A stretch of 64,000 nt of DNA from Escherichia coli (GTDB lineage: Bacteria; Pseudomonadota; Gammaproteobacteria; Enterobacterales; Enterobacteriaceae), in NCBI RefSeq assembly GCF_030013595.1, contig NZ_CP122768.1; one strand, written 5' to 3'. The position numbers and the translations under genes are program-made. Shown here piece by piece: positions 36,443 through 50,985 of this stretch; positions within the stretch are counted from its first letter, which is position 1, and each line of letters starts with the position of its first letter. Below the pieces are notes generated by a model, which saw nothing but the letters and a program-made list of their open reading frames with translations, was not told the origin of the DNA and searched no databases.

Positions 36443-37534
36443 ATGGGATTCAAATGCGGTATCGTCGGTTTGCCCAACGTCGGGAAATCTACCCTGTTCA
36501 ACGCGCTGACCAAAGCCGGTATTGAAGCGGCCAACTTTCCATTCTGCACCATTGAGCCGAACACAGGCGTCGTACCAATGCCTGACCCTCGCCTGGATCA
36601 ACTGGCTGAAATCGTAAAACCGCAGCGTACGCTTCCCACGACCATGGAATTTGTCGATATCGCCGGTCTGGTAAAAGGCGCATCGAAAGGCGAAGGTCTG
36701 GGTAACCAGTTCCTGACTAACATCCGTGAAACCGAAGCGATCGGTCACGTTGTTCGCTGCTTTGAAAATGACAACATCATTCACGTTTCCGGCAAAGTTA
36801 ACCCGGCGGATGATATTGAAGTTATCAACACCGAACTGGCGCTGGCGGACCTCGACACCTGCGAACGTGCGATTCATCGCGTACAGAAGAAAGCCAAAGG
36901 TGGCGATAAAGACGCGAAAGCCGAGCTGGCGGTACTGGAAAAATGCCTGCCGCAGCTGGAAAACGCAGGTATGCTGCGCGCGCTGGATTTAAGCGCTGAA
37001 GAGAAAGCGGCTATTCGTTACCTGAGCTTCCTGACGCTGAAACCAACAATGTACATCGCCAACGTCAACGAAGACGGTTTTGAAAACAACCCGTATCTTG
37101 ACCAGGTGCGTGAAATCGCGGCGAAAGAAGGTTCTGTTGTGGTTCCGGTTTGTGCTGCTGTTGAAGCAGACATTGCCGAACTGGACGACGAAGAACGTGA
37201 CGAGTTTATGCAGGAGCTTGGGCTGGAAGAGCCGGGCCTGAACCGTGTGATCCGTGCCGGTTATAAGCTGCTGAACCTGCAAACTTACTTCACCGCTGGG
37301 GTGAAAGAAGTACGTGCATGGACCATTCCGGTTGGTGCAACCGCGCCGCAGGCCGCTGGCAAAATCCATACTGATTTTGAAAAAGGCTTTATCCGTGCAC
37401 AAACTATTTCGTTCGAAGATTTCATCACTTACAAAGGTGAACAAGGCGCGAAAGAAGCAGGCAAAATGCGTGCAGAAGGCAAAGATTACATCGTTAAAGA
37501 TGGCGATGTAATGAACTTCCTGTTCAATGTCTAA
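36443..37534 (+). CDS. ychF: Ribosome-binding ATPase YchF (Obg-family GTPase)
   Basis: 363 aa; P-loop [15 protein letters not shown] domain at C-terminus. Confidence 0.97.
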
Positions 37535-37593
37535 TTAATTTGTTGTCTCATGAGGTTTCGCTAAATCTCATGAAGAGCGCAAAAGTATATAAA

Positions 37594-37620
37594 ATCCACG
37601 CAATTGCGTGGATTTTTCAT
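37594..37620 (+). terminator. Rho-independent terminator of pth-ychF
   Basis: atccacgc-aatt-gcgtggat followed by T5. Confidence 0.7.
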
Positions 37621-37779
37621 TTCACCGAGTCCTAACCATTCTTATAACATCCTACACTTTTGTGCTTATTGCCTATAGTGAACCACCAGAATAATTAAAG
37701 ACATAAGTGTTCAGATGAGGGATATCTCATTAGCAATGAGATAACGTAAGTTTGTGTTCCACTGCACATCAGACACCTT

Positions 37780-38034
37780 TTACAGCTGATCAATATTGAT
37801 CACGCTCCAATATGCTGGCGAGAAAAGGACTTGCCTGAAGGGCAATATCCAGCAGATAAAGCCCCCGAATAACGTGATTACGTGCGATCCTGGCAAGATG
37901 AAAATGATAACCAGTAGCACGATAATAACGATAAGCCAGAAAATCCATTGATCAAAAATGAATATCGATGTTTTTTGCTTTTTCTTATTAGTAATGCAAA
38001 AATGGCTCATATTGTTTTTGTTATGCAGATACAT
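37780..38034 (-). CDS. Hypothetical small membrane protein (doubtful ORF in AT-rich intergenic region)
   Basis: 84-85 aa ORF with two hydrophobic segments in a very AT-rich region; no clear SD; may be non-coding. Confidence 0.2.
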   Translation of the reverse strand: MYLHNKNNMSHFCITNKKKQKTSIFIFDQWIFWLIVIIVLLVIIFILPGSHVITLFGGFICWILPFRQVLFSPAYWSVINIDQL

Positions 38035-38378
38035 CAAGCGAAAATCCCATAACTAATTAGGATTATTACCAAAAATATTCACCAAATTATTTAACCGCTG
38101 TTTGTTGTAATGTTTTTGTCATATTCATAGTAACGAATTGGAATAAGTAACGACAACTTAGGGAATAACTCGATCTAAACTCACCTTTGTAAGGAGGATG
38201 TTAAATATATATTAATTCCTGTGTTCCTGATTTTGCCCGGTAATAGAGAATTATTCTCAGAGCAGCTCATCATGATTGCACCATACAAATATCATGATGA
38301 TAAGAGGATATTATGCATTGACTTAAACAAAATGACAAAATCCATAGACCCATAGCCTGGGTACTATATAGGAGTGGT

Positions 38379-41246
38379 ATGGGCATCAAACAACACAATG
38401 GGAATACCAAAGCCGATCGTCTCGCTGAATTAAAAATCCGTTCGCCCTCAATTCAACTGATAAAATATGGCGCTATTGGTTTGAATGCAATTATCTTTTC
38501 CCCCCTGCTGATAGCTGCTGATTTAGGAAGTCAAAATGGCACCAATATTACTATTAGTGATGGTGACAGAATTACAGGAGATACCGCCGATCCATCAGGA
38601 AACCTCTATGGTGTAATGACCCCAGCAGGAAACACGCCTGGCAATATCAACCTGGGTAATGATGTCACCGTCAATGTCAACGACGCCTCTGGATATGCAA
38701 AGGGAATCATTATTCAGGGCAATAACAGCTCCCTGACAGCTAACCGACTTACAGTAGATGTTGTTGGTCAAACCTCTGCCATCGGCATTAATTTAATTGG
38801 TGACTATACCCATGCTGACTTAGGCACAGGCAGCACCATTAAGAGTAACGATGACGGCATCATTATTGGACATAGCTCAACACTAACAGCCACTCAATTC
38901 ACCATTGAAAACTCGAACGGTATAGGCCTAACCATCAATGACTATGGCACCAGTGTCGATCTTGGAAGCGGAAGTAAAATCAAGACCGATGGAAGTACAG
39001 GTGTTTATATCGGTGGTCTCAACGGCAATAACGCCAATGGTGCTGCGCGTTTTACGGCGACAGACCTGACAATCGATGTTCAGGGCTATAGCGCCATGGG
39101 AATAAACGTACAGAAAAACTCTGTTGTCGATCTCGGAACAAACAGTTCCATTACAACCAATGGCGATAATGCACACGGCCTCTGGAGCTTTGGCCAGGTG
39201 AGCGCGAATGCACTCACTGTTGATGTAACTGGAGCCGCGGCAAATGGCGTCGAAGTTCGTGGTGGTACAACCACTATCGGTGCTGATAGCCATATTTCTT
39301 CCGCGCAGGGCGGTGGCCTCGTAACCAGTGGTTCAGACGCGACAATCAATTTTTCTGGCACGGCAGCGCAACGAAACAGCATCTTTTCCAGCGGTTCTTA
39401 TGGTGCCTCAGCCCAGACGGCAACGGCTGTTATCAACATGCAAAATACCGATATTACGGTTGATCGTAATGGCAGTCTGGCGCTGGGTTTGTGGGCGCTC
39501 AGCGGCGGTAGAATAACCGGAGACAGTTTGGCTATCACCGGCGCGGCAGGAGCCAGGGGAATTTATGCTATGACCAACAGCCAGATCGACCTCACGAGCG
39601 ATCTGGTCATTGATATGAGTACACCCGACCAGATGGCCATTGCAACGCAACATGACGATGGTTATGCCGCCAGCCGCATCAACGCCTCGGGTCGTATGCT
39701 TATCAACGGTAGCGTTCTTTCCAAAGGTGGGCTAATCAATCTGGATATGCACCCCGGGTCGGTTTGGACAGGTTCTTCCCTCAGCGATAATGTCAATGGC
39801 GGGAAACTGGACGTTGCAATGAATAACAGCGTCTGGAACGTAATAAGTAATTCTAATCTCGACACGCTGGCGCTGAGCCATTCAACTGTCGATTTTGCCA
39901 GCCACACGTCAACTGCCGGCACATTTACCACATTAAACGTAGAGAACCTGAGCGGTAACAGTACCTTTATTATGCGTGCTGATGTTGTTGGCGAGGGTAA
40001 TGGCGTTAATAATAAAGGGGATTTATTGAATATCAGCGGGAGTAGTGCTGGTAATCACGTATTGGCTATCCGTAACCAGAGCAGCGAGGCCACAACGGGA
40101 AATGAAGTTCTGACTGTGGTAAAAACCACTGACGGCGCGGCCTCGTTCAGCGCGTCTTCTCAGGTTGAGTTGGGAGGATATCTGTATGATGTGCGTAAAA
40201 ATGGCACTAACTGGGAGCTTTATGCTTCCGGGACAATTCCGGCGCCGACTCCTAATCCTGAGCCCACACCAGCTCCCGCTCAGCCCCCCATAGTCAACCC
40301 CGATCCTACGCCTAACCCCACTCCCACACCTAAACCCACCACGACCGCAGATGCTGGCGGCAATTATCTCAATGTCGGTTACTTATTAAACTATGTTGAA
40401 AACCGTACGCTGATGCAACGGATGGGTGACCTGCGAAATCAGAGTAAAGACGGAAATATCTGGCTGCGCAGTTATGGGGGAAGTCTGGACTCCTTCGCCA
40501 GTGGCAAACTGAGCGGCTTTGACATGGGTTACAGCGGTATCCAGTTTGGTGGGGATAAACGTCTCTCTGATGTAATGCCGTTGTATGTCGGTCTGTATAT
40601 TGGCTCAACACATGCATCGCCGGACTATAGCGGAGGCGACGGTACCGCACGTTCAGACTACATGGGAATGTACGCCAGTTACATGGCACACAGCGGTTTT
40701 TACAGCGATCTCGTTGTAAAAGCATCACGCCAGAAAAATAGTTTCCACGTACTGGACAGTCAGAACAACGGCGTTAATGCCAACGGCACTGCGAATGGAA
40801 TGAGTATCGCCCTGGAAGCCGGGCAGAGGTTCAACCTGACCCCTACTGGTTATGGGTTCTATATAGAGCCGCAAACCCAGCTCACATACAGCCACCAGAA
40901 TGAGATGGCTATGAAGGCGAGTAATGGCCTCAATATACATCTGAATCACTACGAATCGCTGCTGGGGCGTGCCAGCATGATACTGGGATATGACATCACC
41001 GCAGGCAACAGCCAGCTGAATGTCTATGTGAAGACTGGCGCTATCCGCGAGTTTTCAGGGGATACCGAATATCTGTTGAACAACTCCCGGGAGAAGTACA
41101 GTTTCAAAGGTAATGGCTGGAATAACGGCGTGGGAGTCAGTGCACAGTATAACAAACAGCACACATTCTATCTCGAAGCGGATTACACGCAGGGTAACCT
41201 CTTTGATCAGAAGCAAGTCAACGGAGGATATCGCTTCAGCTTTTAA
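38379..41246 (+). CDS. ycgV: Autotransporter adhesin-like protein YcgV
   Basis: 955 aa; Gly/Thr/Asn-rich repetitive passenger, Pro-rich linker (PAPTPNPEPTPAPAQPPIVNPDPTPNPTPTPKPTT) and C-terminal beta-barrel ending in aromatic residue (RFSF). Confidence 0.9.
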   Translation: MGIKQHNGNTKADRLAELKIRSPSIQLIKYGAIGLNAIIFSPLLIAADLGSQNGTNITISDGDRITGDTADPSGNLYGVMTPAGNTPGNINLGNDVTVNVNDASGYAKGIIIQGNNSSLTANRLTVDVVGQTSAIGINLIGDYTHADLGTGSTIKSNDDGIIIGHSSTLTATQFTIENSNGIGLTINDYGTSVDLGSGSKIKTDGSTGVYIGGLNGNNANGAARFTATDLTIDVQGYSAMGINVQKNSVVDLGTNSSITTNGDNAHGLWSFGQVSANALTVDVTGAAANGVEVRGGTTTIGADSHISSAQGGGLVTSGSDATINFSGTAAQRNSIFSSGSYGASAQTATAVINMQNTDITVDRNGSLALGLWALSGGRITGDSLAITGAAGARGIYAMTNSQIDLTSDLVIDMSTPDQMAIATQHDDGYAASRINASGRMLINGSVLSKGGLINLDMHPGSVWTGSSLSDNVNGGKLDVAMNNSVWNVISNSNLDTLALSHSTVDFASHTSTAGTFTTLNVENLSGNSTFIMRADVVGEGNGVNNKGDLLNISGSSAGNHVLAIRNQSSEATTGNEVLTVVKTTDGAASFSASSQVELGGYLYDVRKNGTNWELYASGTIPAPTPNPEPTPAPAQPPIVNPDPTPNPTPTPKPTTTADAGGNYLNVGYLLNYVENRTLMQRMGDLRNQSKDGNIWLRSYGGSLDSFASGKLSGFDMGYSGIQFGGDKRLSDVMPLYVGLYIGSTHASPDYSGGDGTARSDYMGMYASYMAHSGFYSDLVVKASRQKNSFHVLDSQNNGVNANGTANGMSIALEAGQRFNLTPTGYGFYIEPQTQLTYSHQNEMAMKASNGLNIHLNHYESLLGRASMILGYDITAGNSQLNVYVKTGAIREFSGDTEYLLNNSREKYSFKGNGWNNGVGVSAQYNKQHTFYLEADYTQGNLFDQKQVNGGYRFSF

Positions 41247-41345
41247 GTGGGGGATAGACAAGCCCTTAAACGATGCTGAAAATTGTTAGCGTGCGCCGGA
41301 ATGAAATACAGATCACTCTGATGTATCATAAATCGTTTCTGTCTT

Positions 41346-43265
41346 TCATACCCGGCGCTTAAACTGCCCTGCATCAATGCCATGTTGCTTCATTTTCCGC
41401 CACAGCGTAGTGCGGCCGATTCCAAGTAAAGCCGACATTTCCTGAATGCGACCGCCTGTGACCTGGGCTGCGTTAATAATTGCCTCTTTTTCAACTTCCG
41501 CAAATGACAGACTGGTGGAAAGGCGGGTGGCGCTGACATCATCTGTCGCCTGCTCGGTAAACAGATGTTCAGGTAAATCACTGACGCGAATGCGCCCGTT
41601 ATCACTACTCAGAGCAAGATTCTCGATGACGCTGTAAATTTCAAAATCGTTGCCTGGCCATGCACAAGAAACCAGGCGAGCGAGGGCATCGTCGTCAATT
41701 TTCAGACGCGTAGAGAAGCGTTTTTCAAGACTGCGTAATTTGTTATTCACCAGCGCCGGAATGCTGCCACGCCGCATACGCAGAGGCGGGATGGTAATTT
41801 CAAATGCATGCAGCGCGTAATACAGCTGGCGACTAAAGCGATTTTGTTCCACCAGCATTGCCAGGTCCGCGGTCGTTGTGGCAATCACTTTGACATCAAT
41901 GGGTATTAAACGCCGCGCATCCAGTCGCGTGATAACACCCTGCTTGATAACCTGAAGCAAAGCAGACTGTAACTCCACCGCCAGATATTCAATCTTTTCA
42001 AGAAACAGCGTGCCGCCGTGCGCCAGTTCCAGCCGACTCAGACGGCCATTTTCATTATCCGTGCGATCGCCACCAATAAATTCTTCCGCCAGCGCCGCAT
42101 CACCATATAACTCACAATTGACGGCAATATAAGGCCCCGCTGCACGCTCGCTTTCATTATGAATTGCCTGACTTAGCAGTGCCTTGCCCACGCCCTCTTC
42201 TCCACAAAGCAGGACAGGAAAGCTACTACGCGCCGCCTGGCGACCAAAATGAATCAAGCGGCGGGTTTGCGGATCGTCCTGTGGCATATGAGCGAAAGTA
42301 TGGCTGACTTTTCCTAATTGACTGGTCATTAACTGCCGCATCTGTTCCACAGGATGGAGCAACAAAATAAAGCTGGTTCCCTGCGTTTCTATTATCGGTT
42401 TAAGGGTTATCACCGCATCAATAAACTGGTGCTGGCTTTCAAAGGTTGCTTCTACGTGTTTGAGCGGATGTGCCTGTTTTATTGCTTGTTGCAATACGGC
42501 GGGTAACGTTAAGAGTTCAGTGATTGCCCTTCCCTGACTTGCCGTCGCGTCAAGGCGCAAGGCCCGCGCCGCCTGGGCGTTGATAAATTGCAAATTACCC
42601 TGCTCGTCCCAGCTAATCACGCCATCATCCATACTTTCTAACAGGGCATTAAGTTGATTTAAATGACGGTTAGTTTCAGCGAGCAAACTGTCCGTCAGCA
42701 GTAAATTACCGACCTCGCGGGCGATTGCTAACGTCAACGGCAAATCAGCTGCGGTAGTTTGCTCAACCGGACACGCCAGCGCTATTGTTCCCGTCAATCG
42801 GCCCTTGCTGTCAAACAACGGCGTTGCACAAAAGGCCCAGTTCCAGAGTGCCTGTTTGAAATGTTGATCGGCCATCGTTTTCACGGCCTGACCAGAGATA
42901 GCCGCTAACGATAGCGCACAAGTACCAATAATTCCCTCGGCGCAATACGTGCCGTCATTGAATCCCAGTGTACTTAGTTGCTGCAAGGTTTGCGGATCGC
43001 CATTACGGCTGAGAATGCAGGCGGTTTCATCGAGGATAAACAACGCACACTCTCGCGGTGCCATATATTCCCAGGCATCTTCCAGCGCAGCCTGCCCGAG
43101 CGTCAGCATCGCTTTCTTACGCCGATAAATAGACGCAAATGTCACGCCCTGGGCCTGGTGTGGTACGTTCCATGTCTCCCGTTTCATCAGCTTATTGCAT
43201 CTCTCCCAGGAGGTTGCAATTAAGGGAGATATGCCCCGACCATCGTTGTTAAAAGCGCCACTCAT
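41346..43265 (-). CDS. dhaR: Sigma-70-dependent transcriptional regulator of dha operon (GAF-PAS-AAA+-HTH)
   Basis: Start at MSGAFNNDGRG gives 639 aa; AAA+ motif GEEGVGKALLSQAIH and C-terminal Fis-type HTH; divergent from dhaK. Confidence 0.93.
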   Translation of the reverse strand: MSGAFNNDGRGISPLIATSWERCNKLMKRETWNVPHQAQGVTFASIYRRKKAMLTLGQAALEDAWEYMAPRECALFILDETACILSRNGDPQTLQQLSTLGFNDGTYCAEGIIGTCALSLAAISGQAVKTMADQHFKQALWNWAFCATPLFDSKGRLTGTIALACPVEQTTAADLPLTLAIAREVGNLLLTDSLLAETNRHLNQLNALLESMDDGVISWDEQGNLQFINAQAARALRLDATASQGRAITELLTLPAVLQQAIKQAHPLKHVEATFESQHQFIDAVITLKPIIETQGTSFILLLHPVEQMRQLMTSQLGKVSHTFAHMPQDDPQTRRLIHFGRQAARSSFPVLLCGEEGVGKALLSQAIHNESERAAGPYIAVNCELYGDAALAEEFIGGDRTDNENGRLSRLELAHGGTLFLEKIEYLAVELQSALLQVIKQGVITRLDARRLIPIDVKVIATTTADLAMLVEQNRFSRQLYYALHAFEITIPPLRMRRGSIPALVNNKLRSLEKRFSTRLKIDDDALARLVSCAWPGNDFEIYSVIENLALSSDNGRIRVSDLPEHLFTEQATDDVSATRLSTSLSFAEVEKEAIINAAQVTGGRIQEMSALLGIGRTTLWRKMKQHGIDAGQFKRRV

Positions 43266-43492
43266 ATCCCGCATCCCTTATGACAAAAGGTGTTCCGGCT
43301 CGCAATTTTAAGTATTAATACACGTAAAAGTTTCAATATGGAACATTCATTAAAGCATATGTTTCACTATGAAACATAATTTGGGCTAATTTTCTTTTCC
43401 CTTGCCTGATGCACAATGGATTCATCGGCAGTCAGTGGTCGCCGTGTCGTTGAACATCATCCATGCCCTACCGTAATTGCTGGAGCAAAATA

Positions 43493-48982: not shown

Positions 48983-50005
48983 ATGTCACTAACCAGACGG
49001 AGGTTTACACAGATTCTTGCGTCGACATTGTTCCTGCATCATCTGCCGTCCTTTGCACAATCAGTCAAATTCTGGGCCTCACTGACGCTTCCCGAAGCCC
49101 AAAACATTACACGCATCGTCAGCGCAGGCGCGCCCGCCGATTTACTATTGCTGGCTGTCGCGCCAGAAAAAATGGTCGGTTTTTCCTCTTTTGATTTTGC
49201 CCGTCAGGCATTAATTCCATTGCCAGAGCACATTCGCCAGTTCCCCAGGCTGGGACGACTCGCCGGGCGCGCCAGCACACTCTCGCTGGAAGGGCTTATG
49301 GCGTTACATCCCGATTTGGTCGTTGATTGCGGCAATACGGATGAAACCTGGATCTCCCAGGCACGGCAGGTTAGCGAACAGACACAAATACCCTGGTTAT
49401 TGCTTAACGGGAAACTGGAACAATCAGCAGAACAGTTAACAACGCTTGGCAAAACGTTAGGCGAAGAGCACCGCACCGCAGAACAAGCCAATCTCGCCAG
49501 CCGCTTCGTTGGTGAAGCTCAGGCATTCGCCACCTCACCCGCCGCTAACCTCAGCTTTTATGCTGCGCGCGGTCCTCGAGGGCTGGAAACGGGCTTACAG
49601 GGTTCGTTGCATACCGAGGCGGCGGAATTATTAGGTTTGCACAACGTCGCGCAAATAGCCGATCGCCACGGTCTGACACAGGTTTCCATGGAAAATCTCC
49701 TGCGCTGGCAGCCGGATATTATTCTGGTTCAGGAGGCCGTTACTGCAGATTTTATTCGTCGTGATCCTCTCTGGCAGGGCGTGAAAGCGGTTGCGGAACA
49801 ACGCATCTTATTTTTAAGTGGCCTGCCCTTTGGCTGGCTGGATGCCCCGCCGGGAATCAACCGTCTTCTGGGATTACGCAGACTTCACGCCTGGCTGGAT
49901 CCCGCCATCAATCGCCAGTTTAAAAGTGACATGCAGCATTACGCCCAACTGTTCTGGCATTGCCCATTAAGTGACGCCGACTATCAAAAATTGGTGGCGA
50001 GCTAA
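48983..50005 (+). CDS. ABC transporter periplasmic substrate-binding protein (FecB/BtuF-like, class III) with Tat-type signal
   Basis: 340 aa; N-terminus MSLTRRRFTQILASTLFLHHLPSFAQ has twin-arginine motif; SD agga upstream; first gene of operon; stop overlaps next start (TAATG). Confidence 0.85.
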   Translation: MSLTRRRFTQILASTLFLHHLPSFAQSVKFWASLTLPEAQNITRIVSAGAPADLLLLAVAPEKMVGFSSFDFARQALIPLPEHIRQFPRLGRLAGRASTLSLEGLMALHPDLVVDCGNTDETWISQARQVSEQTQIPWLLLNGKLEQSAEQLTTLGKTLGEEHRTAEQANLASRFVGEAQAFATSPAANLSFYAARGPRGLETGLQGSLHTEAAELLGLHNVAQIADRHGLTQVSMENLLRWQPDIILVQEAVTADFIRRDPLWQGVKAVAEQRILFLSGLPFGWLDAPPGINRLLGLRRLHAWLDPAINRQFKSDMQHYAQLFWHCPLSDADYQKLVAS

Positions 50006-50985
50006 TGAGAACCGTAAACGGATGTATTTTGCTGCTGGCAGCTATCAGTATCACTTTTGCCGCCGTAAGTGGGGCTTATCATCTCGATATACAGCAACTG
50101 CTGGCGCTCATTCTGCGTCAAGAAAATGTTCCTGTGCAGGAACAAATTGTCTTCTGGCAAATCCGCGTGCCGCGTATTCTTGCTGCGCTGTTTCTGGGCG
50201 CGGCGCTGGCAGGGGCCGGAACCACCTATCAGGGAATGTTCCGTAATCCCTTAGTGTCACCGGATATTTTAGGCGTCTCCGCCGGTGCCGGACTTGGTGC
50301 CTGCGCGGCAATCCTGTGGGGATTATCCATTGTTTACATCCAGCTGTACGCATTTTGCGGCGGGCTGATGGTGGTCGCGGGCGTCTGGTTGATTACGCGT
50401 CGGGTGACCCGCCACGATCCGATCTTAACCCTGGTGCTGGTAGGCATTGCGTTAGGAACGTTGTGCGGAGCGGGGATATCGCTAATAAAAACGCTGGCCG
50501 ATCCTTACACCCAGTTACCGTCAATTACCTTCTGGTTGCTGGGGGGGCTGTCCACCGTGACCTTACGCGATCTCTGCTATGCTGCACCGATCATTCTCAT
50601 AGGCTCCTTGCCCCTGTTTTTTCTCCGCTGGCGCATGAATTTACTCACGCTTTCCGACGACGAAGCCCGTTCGCTGGGACTGAACGTGACACGTCTGCGC
50701 TTTGGATTAATTGTCTGCGCCACACTAATCACCGCCAGCACGGTAGCAATAGCGGGCATAATTGGTTGGGTCGGCCTGGTCGTTCCGCACATTGCCCGCT
50801 TGTTGACCGGTCATAACCATCAGCAGCTGTTGCCCATGGCAATGTGTACTGGCGCGATTCTGCTCCTGCTTACCGATACGCTGGCACGCAGCATTGGAAC
50901 AACAGAAATCCCACTTGGCATTCTGACCGCTTTTGTTGGTGCACCGTTTTTCCTGTTTTTGTTGTTACGCGGAGGTCGCCAGTGA
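50005..50985 (+). CDS. ABC transporter permease, FecCD family
   Basis: 326 aa polytopic protein with FecCD-type conserved region. Confidence 0.88.
   Translation: MRTVNGCILLLAAISITFAAVSGAYHLDIQQLLALILRQENVPVQEQIVFWQIRVPRILAALFLGAALAGAGTTYQGMFRNPLVSPDILGVSAGAGLGACAAILWGLSIVYIQLYAFCGGLMVVAGVWLITRRVTRHDPILTLVLVGIALGTLCGAGISLIKTLADPYTQLPSITFWLLGGLSTVTLRDLCYAAPIILIGSLPLFFLRWRMNLLTLSDDEARSLGLNVTRLRFGLIVCATLITASTVAIAGIIGWVGLVVPHIARLLTGHNHQQLLPMAMCTGAILLLLTDTLARSIGTTEIPLGILTAFVGAPFFLFLLLRGGRQ

Follow-up and report, generated by a model that had tools for sequence, protein, structure and literature searches.

The open reading frame at 38379..41246 (plus strand) is very probably an intact allele of ycgV, encoding a monomeric, pertactin-type adhesin that belongs to the classical (type Va) autotransporters. 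ycgV is an already known, catalogued gene of E. coli. The frame starts with ATG, encodes 955 aa and spans exactly the interval given in the original prediction, which had also proposed the name YcgV; RefSeq annotates a near-identical locus as ycgV, flanked by ychF and dhaR, as found for members of the ycgV orthologous group. Domain architecture, fold prediction, orthology and synteny were derived in the present analysis. The features of the locus are given below, with positions referring to the window (i.e. the whole 64-kb stretch of DNA that was analysed).

37535..38378, strand not assigned: AT-rich ychF-ycgV intergenic spacer with the ycgV promoter region (844 bp, 35.4% GC)
38253..38378, plus strand: equivalent of the YbdO probe, 126 bp abutting the start codon (from the EMSA primers of PMC11681634)
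38370..38374, plus strand: AGGAG as Shine-Dalgarno sequence, at a distance of 4 nt from the ATG (direct sequence reading)
38379..41246, plus strand: ycgV coding sequence, 955 codons and stop (ORF call and RefSeq annotation of the near-identical locus)
38379..38519, plus strand: leader of 47 aa with putative cleavage at its end (hydropathy, charge, homologue alignment)
38500..38505, plus strand: C6 homopolymer in the leader, codons 41-43 (recurrent +1/-1 frameshifts among strains)
38520..40229, plus strand: passenger, aa 48-617, a predicted G/S/T/N-rich beta-helix of about 20 three-stranded rungs (AlphaFold2 model, Foldseek, internal repeats)
39858..40223, plus strand: autochaperone segment in the last part of the passenger, aa 494-615, matching Pertactin, PF03212 (Pfam, E = 1.3e-36)
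40230..40346, plus strand: Pro/Thr-rich spacer, aa 618-656, predicted to be disordered (composition; pLDDT about 40 over 620-649)
40299..40316, plus strand: single 18-nt unit encoding PDPTPN (nucleotide alignment of seven alleles; protein alignment)
40341..40415, plus strand: alpha-helix, aa 655-679, the predicted pore-spanning linker helix of autotransporters (DSSP on the model, H655-661 and H663-679)
40455..41243, plus strand: C-terminal outer-membrane beta-barrel, aa 693-955 (PF03797, TIGR01414, Foldseek, PDB sequence matches)

An in-frame stop codon lies 60 nt upstream of the ATG. Over 3811 nt the locus matches a pig isolate with 99.9% identity; its identity to K-12-type strains is 97-98%. 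In length, in its ychF-ycgV-dhaR context and in domain order, the K-12 counterpart (b1202; 955 aa) does not differ from the present gene. The two are 97.3% identical as proteins and 97.6% identical as nucleotide sequences, with 26 amino acid substitutions located in the leader (two), passenger, linker (four) and barrel (six); the spacer between ychF and ycgV is 76 bp longer here than in K-12. The present allele is uncommon, as only 2 of 4119 matching records reached at least 99% identity over the coding sequence.

Upstream region, length variation and gene loss

As originally noted, the gene adjoins an AT-rich spacer and the dha locus. The GC content of the spacer (35.4%) contrasts with about 50% in its flanks, and dhaR (41346-43274) is convergent to ycgV. 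A terminator-like hairpin of ychF was located at 37591-37616; an Rfam scan of 37400-41500 returned no family at gathering score, and its sub-threshold matches all fell on this hairpin. A hydrophobic ORF of 85 aa on the minus strand of the spacer (37780-38037) was rejected as a gene, as the frame does not stay intact from strain to strain and lacks a family match. Within the 99-nt gap between ycgV and dhaR, structure was not significant (z = -1.56) and a consensus terminator was not found.

The K-12 equivalent of the spacer has been listed among 'promoter islands' (PMC3661553). For a strain of avian pathogenic E. coli, binding of the repressor YbdO to a 126-bp probe upstream of ycgV has been described (PMC11681634). 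The forward EMSA primer of that study matches 38253-38272 with two mismatches, and the reverse primer is complementary to the stretch whose last position is 38378. Transcription of ycgV would start in this AT-rich spacer and its level would normally be low, with repression by YbdO as reported in the literature.

Sampled ycgV alleles measured either 2868 or 2886 nt. An alignment of seven alleles placed the 18-nt difference in the Pro-rich linker, where a further tandem copy (CCCGATCCTACGCCTGAA) stands directly before 40299..40316 in other alleles, which encode 961 aa. The common difference between 955 and 961 aa thus equals one PDPTPE unit of 6 aa, and most gene-bearing strains encode a YcgV of exactly one of these two lengths. 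In-frame deletions of whole passenger rungs occurred in rare alleles only. The variation in passenger repeat number among strains that had been anticipated is therefore essentially absent; it is the linker that changes in length.

ycgV is dispensable. At least 80% of the gene is kept in 3935 of 5426 complete E. coli genomes, and it is missing or fragmentary in about one quarter of them. Losses took several forms: (i) in the one ST131 genome examined, an integrase-bearing island follows ychF in place of ycgV; (ii) in a sublineage of O157:H7, a deletion extends from nt 1631 of ycgV into dhaR; (iii) 3 of 60 sampled alleles were annotated as frameshifted; and (iv) a leader-profile search detected at least 10 distinct truncated YcgV products of E. 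coli. Two protein clusters, P0007 (867 aa, 3116 members) and P0014 (716 aa, 1256 members), were considered as pseudogene lineages and rejected; their members are a mixture of full-length and partial proteins, so that cluster sizes are uninformative about the frequency of truncation. Since ycgV is dispensable and often lost, frameshifted or truncated, it may contribute little in many backgrounds.

These disruptions, together with the AT-rich 'promoter island' upstream, would also fit a gene that is intact yet effectively cryptic, i.e. a silenced, slowly decaying accessory gene that makes no contribution in this strain under normal conditions and whose copy here has simply escaped inactivation so far. 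We regard this as a serious possibility, although on balance an unlikely one. The present ORF is full-length with all domains intact, and the uniform lengths of 955 or 961 aa in most carriers likewise speak against decay. Moreover, published scans detected positive selection on ycgV (PMC9110714), ycgV mutations emerged in a fim-deleted strain selected for adhesion, and regulated transcription of the gene was measured in the avian pathogenic strain (PMC11681634).

Domain architecture and passenger repeats

The C-terminal barrel, part of the original prediction, was confirmed. Pfam assigned PF03797 (Autotransporter) to residues 694-935 (E = 1.1e-36), and TIGR01414 covered 513-955 (E = 4e-105). 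In the AlphaFold2 model (mean pLDDT of 85.7 for the whole protein), DSSP placed 12-13 strand segments across residues 693-954. Foldseek matched the barrel to the beta-domains of EspP and BrkA (E about 1e-13, target-normalised TM 0.78-0.90), and sequence matches in the PDB included Vag8 over 480-954 (E = 4e-24) as well as the beta-domains of BrkA (E = 8e-23) and EspP. Alignments to pre-cleavage structures of EspP begin at residues 665-669. The protein ends in ...GGYRFSF, with the aromatic residue of the BAM beta-signal; this residue, F955, was invariant in 50 homologues. The Pro/Thr-rich linker had been placed at 40240-40340, within about 10 nt of the boundaries found here (40230-40346). It contains up to nine prolines per 20-residue window, and the model is disordered over residues 620-649, as it is over residues 1-44.

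The passenger was modelled as a continuous three-stranded beta-helix from residue 50 to 617, with pLDDT values mostly above 90. Its composition over aa 51-493 (G 14%, S 11%, T 10%, N 10%, A 9%, and I 9%) agrees with the richness in G, T, N, S and I noted before. Among solved passenger structures, pertactin (1dab) was the best Foldseek match (E = 5e-10), followed by IgA1 protease, Hap and UpaB, which bears out the beta-helix-like fold initially proposed. YcgV has also been named among autotransporters with an autochaperone domain (PMC5767081). The protein shows four features of type Va autotransporters: a barrel, an alpha-helical linker, a beta-helical passenger with an autochaperone, and a C-terminal aromatic residue.

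Units of about 20 residues, as originally described for the passenger, were not recovered. Fixed-lag BLOSUM autocorrelation of the passenger, run alongside a Fourier analysis of hydropathy, put none of the lags above the 95th percentile of its shuffles, and none near 20 stood out. Compared with itself as a whole, the passenger gave only the identity match. When fragments of 60 aa were instead searched by gapped BLAST against the masked passenger, repeats emerged at offsets of 46-57 and of 102-106 aa. The highest-scoring match reached 34.3 bits (20.8-28.5 in 10 shuffles), and 38 matches had E < 0.01 (2-23 in shuffles). The spacing of rungs in the AlphaFold2 model was 25.8 ± 3.2 residues. Structurally, the passenger is made up of rungs of about 26 residues each; what repeats detectably in its sequence is a pair of rungs, about 47-57 residues long.

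With pertactin P.69, BrkA and Vag8 of Bordetella, YcgV has in common a beta-helix passenger ending in PF03212, a helix-plugged barrel and a Pro-rich region; pertactin 2iou aligns to residues 478-616. Identity between the passengers is merely 16-17%, however, and the family-specific leader of 47 aa sets YcgV apart from these proteins.

AIDA-type passengers have a 19-residue repeat. By this measure YcgV, with rungs of 25.8 residues and a two-rung repeat of about 50, differs from Ag43, AIDA-I and TibA, and its passenger autocorrelation showed no significant lag near 19-20. Nevertheless, a phylogenetic review placed YcgV in 'Group 4' together with these three proteins, all associated with biofilms, and discussed it as a possible new self-associating member (PMC9289746). 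Its barrel has a Foldseek match to the AIDA-I transport unit (4mee). Given this grouping and the biofilm phenotype cited for YcgV (PMC9289746, PMC3796261), YcgV might act by cell-cell aggregation through head-to-tail contacts of beta-helices rather than by binding to host or abiotic surfaces in the manner of pertactin-like adhesins. Judged from sequence and model, such self-association seems unlikely: pertactin gave the best match among solved passengers, ahead of IgA1 protease, Hap and UpaB; the best 50 Foldseek matches (most of them to barrels) included no passenger of Ag43, AIDA-I or TibA; and Pfam found no AIDA-type repeat family in aa 48-494.

The leader and its C6 tract

The leader consists of a charged N-extension of 29 aa (six K/R and two D/E; net charge +4) and a hydrophobic core of 18 residues from Y30 to A47, over which 11-residue Kyte-Doolittle means reached 1.45-2.45. 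A signal-peptidase site, I-A-A|D, is predicted after A47. The leader had pLDDT values below 50 in the AlphaFold2 model. For 23 long-leader homologues from several genera, chosen for an equal N-terminal length of 62 residues, the alignment was gapless over 52 columns and Met1 was invariant. The predicted mature N-terminus of YcgV also aligns with Pantoea homologues bearing ordinary leaders of about 30 aa, with which it shares the junction 'AA|xxGSQ'. Length is conserved in the extension and sequence only weakly so. A leader-profile search of 1.84 billion representative proteins found the motif restricted to proteins and fragments of the YcgV family.

The N-terminus had been likened to an extended autotransporter signal peptide, a resemblance that held for its length but not for its motif. 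Unusual length is shared with the leaders of the ESPR type (PF13018). Searches with the N-terminal 70 aa gave no family in Pfam, PF13018 included, even at E ≤ 10, and no match in NCBIfam, ruling out an ESPR; PF13018 is present in the distant Citrobacter relatives P0086 and P0087. The leader is an extension specific to the YcgV family, of conserved length and with signal-peptide features. Nor does the idea of a context-dependent start find anything in its support: codons 2-60 contain no in-frame ATG or GTG, and the sole in-frame TTG is codon 35 within the hydrophobic core.

Exact-context counts of the leader tract in complete genomes gave 3271 C6, 19 C7 and 56 C5, i.e. 2.2% out of frame, with several of the variants being clonal or duplicate records. 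A control G6 tract of the same gene, located at nt 1794 of the coding sequence in alleles that have it, varied in 18 of about 3575 cases (0.5%), and another C6 tract, which lies in the linker (40284-40289 in the present allele), in 0 of about 370. The odds ratio of leader C6 to G6 was 4.5 (Fisher p = 1.6e-10); the clonal and duplicate records inflate this p-value and reduce the number of independent events to far below 75. The window contains just four C/G runs of at least six residues, two of them in ycgV.

Two proposals build on this tract. In the first, the leader would represent a second, family-restricted class of extended signal peptide unrelated to ESPR, whose 29-residue N-extension modulates the timing of Sec export, and C6 would be a frameshift switch operating at low frequency to turn the adhesin off in subpopulations; this is speculative and we place little confidence in it. 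In the second, the elevated variation, the contrast with both control tracts and the concentration of runs in ycgV would reflect slipped-strand on/off switching of a phase-variable contingency gene. We consider this improbable: six residues are short for a contingency tract, a dispensable gene would gather such frameshifts regardless, and besides the clonal records some variants may be homopolymer errors of long-read assembly, the rate of which may be increased by a neighbouring T4 run.

It is established that outer-membrane beta-barrel proteins have no route to BAM without crossing the inner membrane. In a 2026 report, YcgV is termed 'leaderless', its native leader having a SignalP 6.0 probability of 0.47 and no signal peptide seen by InterProScan; the YcgV scaffold is described there as showing cargo at the cell surface once supplied with a signal peptide, and fusions without one as giving no display (PMC13101318). 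That YcgV lacks a functional signal peptide altogether, its annotated N-terminus containing no export signal, is very hard to sustain despite these scores and the lack of Pfam or NCBIfam matches to the N-terminal 70 aa, given the core at 30-47 with its preceding net charge of +4 and I-A-A|D end, the selected homologues sharing the first 52 residues without gaps, the short-leader homologues meeting YcgV at the common junction, the failure of the signal-peptide-free fusions and the need of a barrel to cross the inner membrane before reaching BAM.

Proposed secretion and significance

From known type Va secretion we infer export by Sec, the position at which the leader is cut, the sequence of translocation steps and the role of the linker as a spacer. 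The 47-aa leader would direct YcgV to the Sec translocon, a step against which the SignalP 6.0 probability of 0.47 and the 'leaderless' label count, and would probably be cleaved after A47. The C-terminal domain (aa 693-955) would then be inserted by BAM, forming a beta-barrel whose pore holds helix 655-679, and the passenger (48-617) would exit C-terminus first. Folding may begin at the Pertactin/autochaperone segment (494-615) and proceed to a beta-helix of about 20 rungs, which the disordered Pro/Thr spacer (618-656) would keep off the membrane. At the surface, the beta-helix would promote adhesion and biofilm formation.

We rely on the literature for adhesion, biofilm formation, the binding of YbdO and display at the surface via the YcgV translocator. 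In reviews, adhesion and biofilm formation by YcgV are credited to Roux et al. 2005 (PMC3796261, PMC9289746), in line with the description as a known adhesin-type gene from which this work started. Both are promoted by over-expression of ycgV.

Outside correct annotation the finding carries little weight, and its useful outcomes are corrections. The conserved, translated, family-specific leader with signal-peptide features bears on the 'leaderless' claim of the 2026 report, and the frameshift-prone C6 tract, together with many independent disruptions, shows that ycgV has been lost repeatedly in E. coli.

Identity and setting of the locus

The ORF at 38379-41246 (+) is the already known ycgV, as the original prediction had recognized. 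When 37535-41345 was searched by megablast in 5,426 complete E. coli genomes, the locus matched in 4,727 (with at least 80% query coverage in 3,930). The top match was a pig isolate (99.9%), and K-12-type strains matched at 97-98%. In all cases examined, near-identical loci included, RefSeq annotates ycgV between ychF and dhaR. The K-12-like protein has the same length of 955 aa and differs from the window protein at 26 positions. The window allele is uncommon, with at least 99% CDS identity in only two of 4,119 matching records. Eight or nine matches among the complete E. coli genomes sit on plasmid-labelled records. The 955-codon frame is ATG-initiated, spans exactly the predicted interval, and is preceded by an in-frame stop 60 nt upstream. 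The AT-rich spacer and the dha neighborhood ascribed to the gene were likewise found, with a GC content of 33-39% in the spacer versus about 50% in the flanking genes.

Features of the ycgV locus
36443-37534: ychF, followed by the spacer
37535-38378: ychF-ycgV spacer, 844 bp, GC 33-39%
38370-38374 (+): AGGAG, four bases 5′ of the ycgV ATG
38379-41246 (+): ycgV
38500-38505 (+): C6 run within the probable signal-peptide coding region of ycgV
40299-40316: 18-nt unit encoding PDPTP(E/N), one copy, insertion point after 40298
41346-43274 (-): dhaR, convergent with ycgV

The spacer measures 768 bp in K-12-type strains versus 844 bp in the window, and 75 bp (37815-37889) are missing from the former. 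Just 3′ of ychF, a palindromic hairpin (37591-37616; 11-bp stem, A and T runs on either side) looks like a bidirectional intrinsic terminator and accounts for sub-threshold Rfam matches to 'Leu_leader'. A strongly hydrophobic 85-aa ORF in the spacer (37780-38037, -) had no significant family match, loses 75 bp in K-12, is reduced to 73 aa in O55, O157, and O103 strains, and is probably not a gene. For dhaR, the longest ORF encodes 642 aa versus 639 aa (1920 nt) in the RefSeq annotation of a near-identical strain, whose start lies three codons downstream.

The K-12 ycgV/ychF spacer counts among published 'promoter islands' (PMC3661553). In an avian pathogenic strain, YbdO represses ycgV and bound a 126-bp probe (PMC11681634) corresponding to 38253-38378. 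Two reviews (PMC3796261; PMC9289746) credit Roux et al. 2005 with the finding that ycgV induction promotes initial adhesion and biofilm formation. YcgV has been placed phylogenetically among self-associating autotransporters in a 2022 review, which as of then knew of no published structural studies (PMC9289746), and ycgV recurs in positive-selection scans (PMC9110714).

Passenger, linker, and barrel

YcgV has a textbook type Va architecture. Pfam models for pertactin (PF03212, aa 494-615) and the autotransporter beta-domain (PF03797, aa 694-935) matched with E-values of about 1e-36 each, and NCBIfam TIGR01414 spans aa 513-955 (E = 4e-105). A PDB sequence search aligned Vag8 to residues 480-954 (E = 4e-24), matched pertactin over 478-616, and also recovered the beta-domains of BrkA, EspP, and Hbp. 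In an AlphaFold2 model built from 50 homologues (mean pLDDT 85.7), residues 50-617 form an unbroken three-stranded beta-helix, mostly with pLDDT above 90, followed by a helix (655-679) and a barrel (693-954); segments 1-44 and 620-649 are of low confidence. Foldseek against the PDB matched the EspP and BrkA barrels (E about 1e-13, target-normalised TM 0.78-0.90), and the first passenger match was pertactin 1dab (E = 5e-10). The predicted beta-helix passenger and C-terminal barrel are supported, and the Pro-rich linker, placed at 40240-40340, agrees with a measured tract at aa 618-656 (nt 40230-40346; up to nine prolines per 20 residues). The protein ends in RFSF, with the terminal Phe invariant among homologues.

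The passenger composition (G 14%, S 11%, T 10%, N 10%, A 9%, I 9%) was as anticipated. Units of about 20 residues, which had also been proposed, found no support: in fixed-lag similarity autocorrelation, every lag stayed within the 95th percentile of shuffles, with the highest at 47, 105, 86, and 49, and the modelled rungs are spaced by 25.8 ± 3.2 residues on average (starts at 89, 118, 145, 168, 192, 223, 248, 273, 296, 321, 351, 378, 402, 433, 452, and 476). When 60-aa fragments were compared with the remaining passenger allowing gaps, self-matches appeared at offsets of 46-57 and 102-106. The best reached 34.3 bits (44% identity over 52 residues) versus maxima of 20.8-28.5 bits in ten shuffles; therefore, the internal repeats are real, yet only modestly above the level expected from composition alone. 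Aligned two-rung segments reveal a degenerate unit, one rung resembling xVDLGxxSxI...GIxI and the other LTAxxLTVDVxGxxAxGI; units 1-4 are mutually 37-38% identical, with weaker similarity in later units.

Variation in passenger repeat number between strains had been suggested. Across a spread of 60 allele rows, nearly all had a CDS of 2868 or 2886 nt. The longer class has 18 nt more, a second copy of CCCGATCCTACGCCTGAA (PDPTPE) inserted in tandem after CDS nt 1920 in the Pro-rich linker, so that one versus two PDPTP(E/N) units yield the 955-aa and 961-aa classes. The unit is single in the window and K-12-type alleles and double in O55:H7 and many others. Passenger length was otherwise constant. 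In rare E. coli alleles (retrieved proteins P0003/P0006, P0004, P0005, and P0011), the passenger has lost 57, 78, 76, and 130 aa by in-frame deletion, equal to 2, 3, 3, and 5 modelled rungs. The 78-aa deletion occurs in several NCBI accessions on four contigs; the others are each singletons and could be assembly collapses. Common passenger repeat-number variation is therefore refuted, and it is in the linker that copy number varies.

Leader and translation start

Leader residues 1-29 contain six K/R and two D/E, and residues 30-47 form the sole hydrophobic stretch, ending I-A-A|D. As in YcgV, 62 residues precede the conserved 'DG' in 30 of 50 aligned sequences, drawn from E. coli, Citrobacter, Leminorella, Morganella, Limnobaculum, and Pragia, among other genera. 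Homologues whose leaders have the ordinary length of about 30 aa, among them those named Pantoea, share the AA|xxGSQ junction with the long ones. Across 23 selected long leaders, the alignment was gap-free over 52 columns with Met1 invariant, at identities to the window protein down to 17-35%, a pattern that argues for translation of the extension and for 38379 as the true start. A context-dependent start, as once suggested, found no support: codons 2-60 hold no in-frame ATG or GTG and a single in-frame TTG, at codon 35 within the hydrophobic core.

The supposed resemblance to an extended autotransporter signal peptide held for the unusual length and failed for ESPR (PF13018): neither this nor any other Pfam or NCBIfam model matched the leader. 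A leader profile searched against 1.84 billion representative proteins retrieved 18 at E ≤ 0.001. Three were YcgV-family proteins recovered earlier, and 14 of the 15 new ones resembled YcgV by BLASTP, the exception (P0132) being a weak repetitive match. YcgV is treated as 'leaderless' in a 2026 paper (PMC13101318), which gives a SignalP 6.0 probability of 0.47. Judged by comparison of homologues, the leader is more probably a true, if atypically long, Sec signal peptide.

Loss, decay, and a probable frameshift hot spot

About a quarter of complete E. coli genomes lack ycgV. In ST131 strain 751 (L003, 6211-12087), the place of ycgV-dhaR next to ychF is taken by a tyrosine recombinase integrase, remnants of IS3 and IS91, and DUF3999/DUF2339 genes; in some 600 genomes, the match is confined to the first 87 nt or so 3′ of ychF. 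One O157:H7 sublineage has lost 1.2 kb from the 3′ end of ycgV together with most of dhaR, which leaves dhaKLM without its regulator; strain OK1 (L005, 5001-6751) has ycgV nt 1631 fused to a dhaR remnant. O157:H7 strain FRIK944 (genome match H8) keeps the complete locus. The leader search also returned many different truncated E. coli YcgV products, and a frameshift was annotated in 3 of the 60 sampled alleles.

Two of these three frameshifts, one +1 and one -1, fall in the C6 run at 38500-38505. Among complete E. coli genomes, records with the exact context comprised 3271 with C6, 19 with C7, and 56 with C5, i.e. 2.2% are frameshifted. Control tracts within ycgV varied in 18 of about 3575 records (G6, 0.5%) and in none of about 370 (linker C6). 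Relative to the G6 tract, the odds ratio was 4.5 (nominal p = 1.6e-10), several variants being clonal or duplicate records. Only four C/G runs of at least six occur in the 64-kb window, two of them within ycgV; the longest is a G7 (50541-50547) in a 326-aa ORF (50005-50985) within what looks like a five-gene, transporter-like cluster. Given the clonal or duplicate variants and long-read homopolymer error as a possible contributor, the leader C6 tract falls short of demonstrated phase variation and is probably a frameshift hot spot. For YcgV as a whole, the corrected rung and repeat size, the linker polymorphism, and the conserved non-ESPR leader are refinements rather than discoveries.
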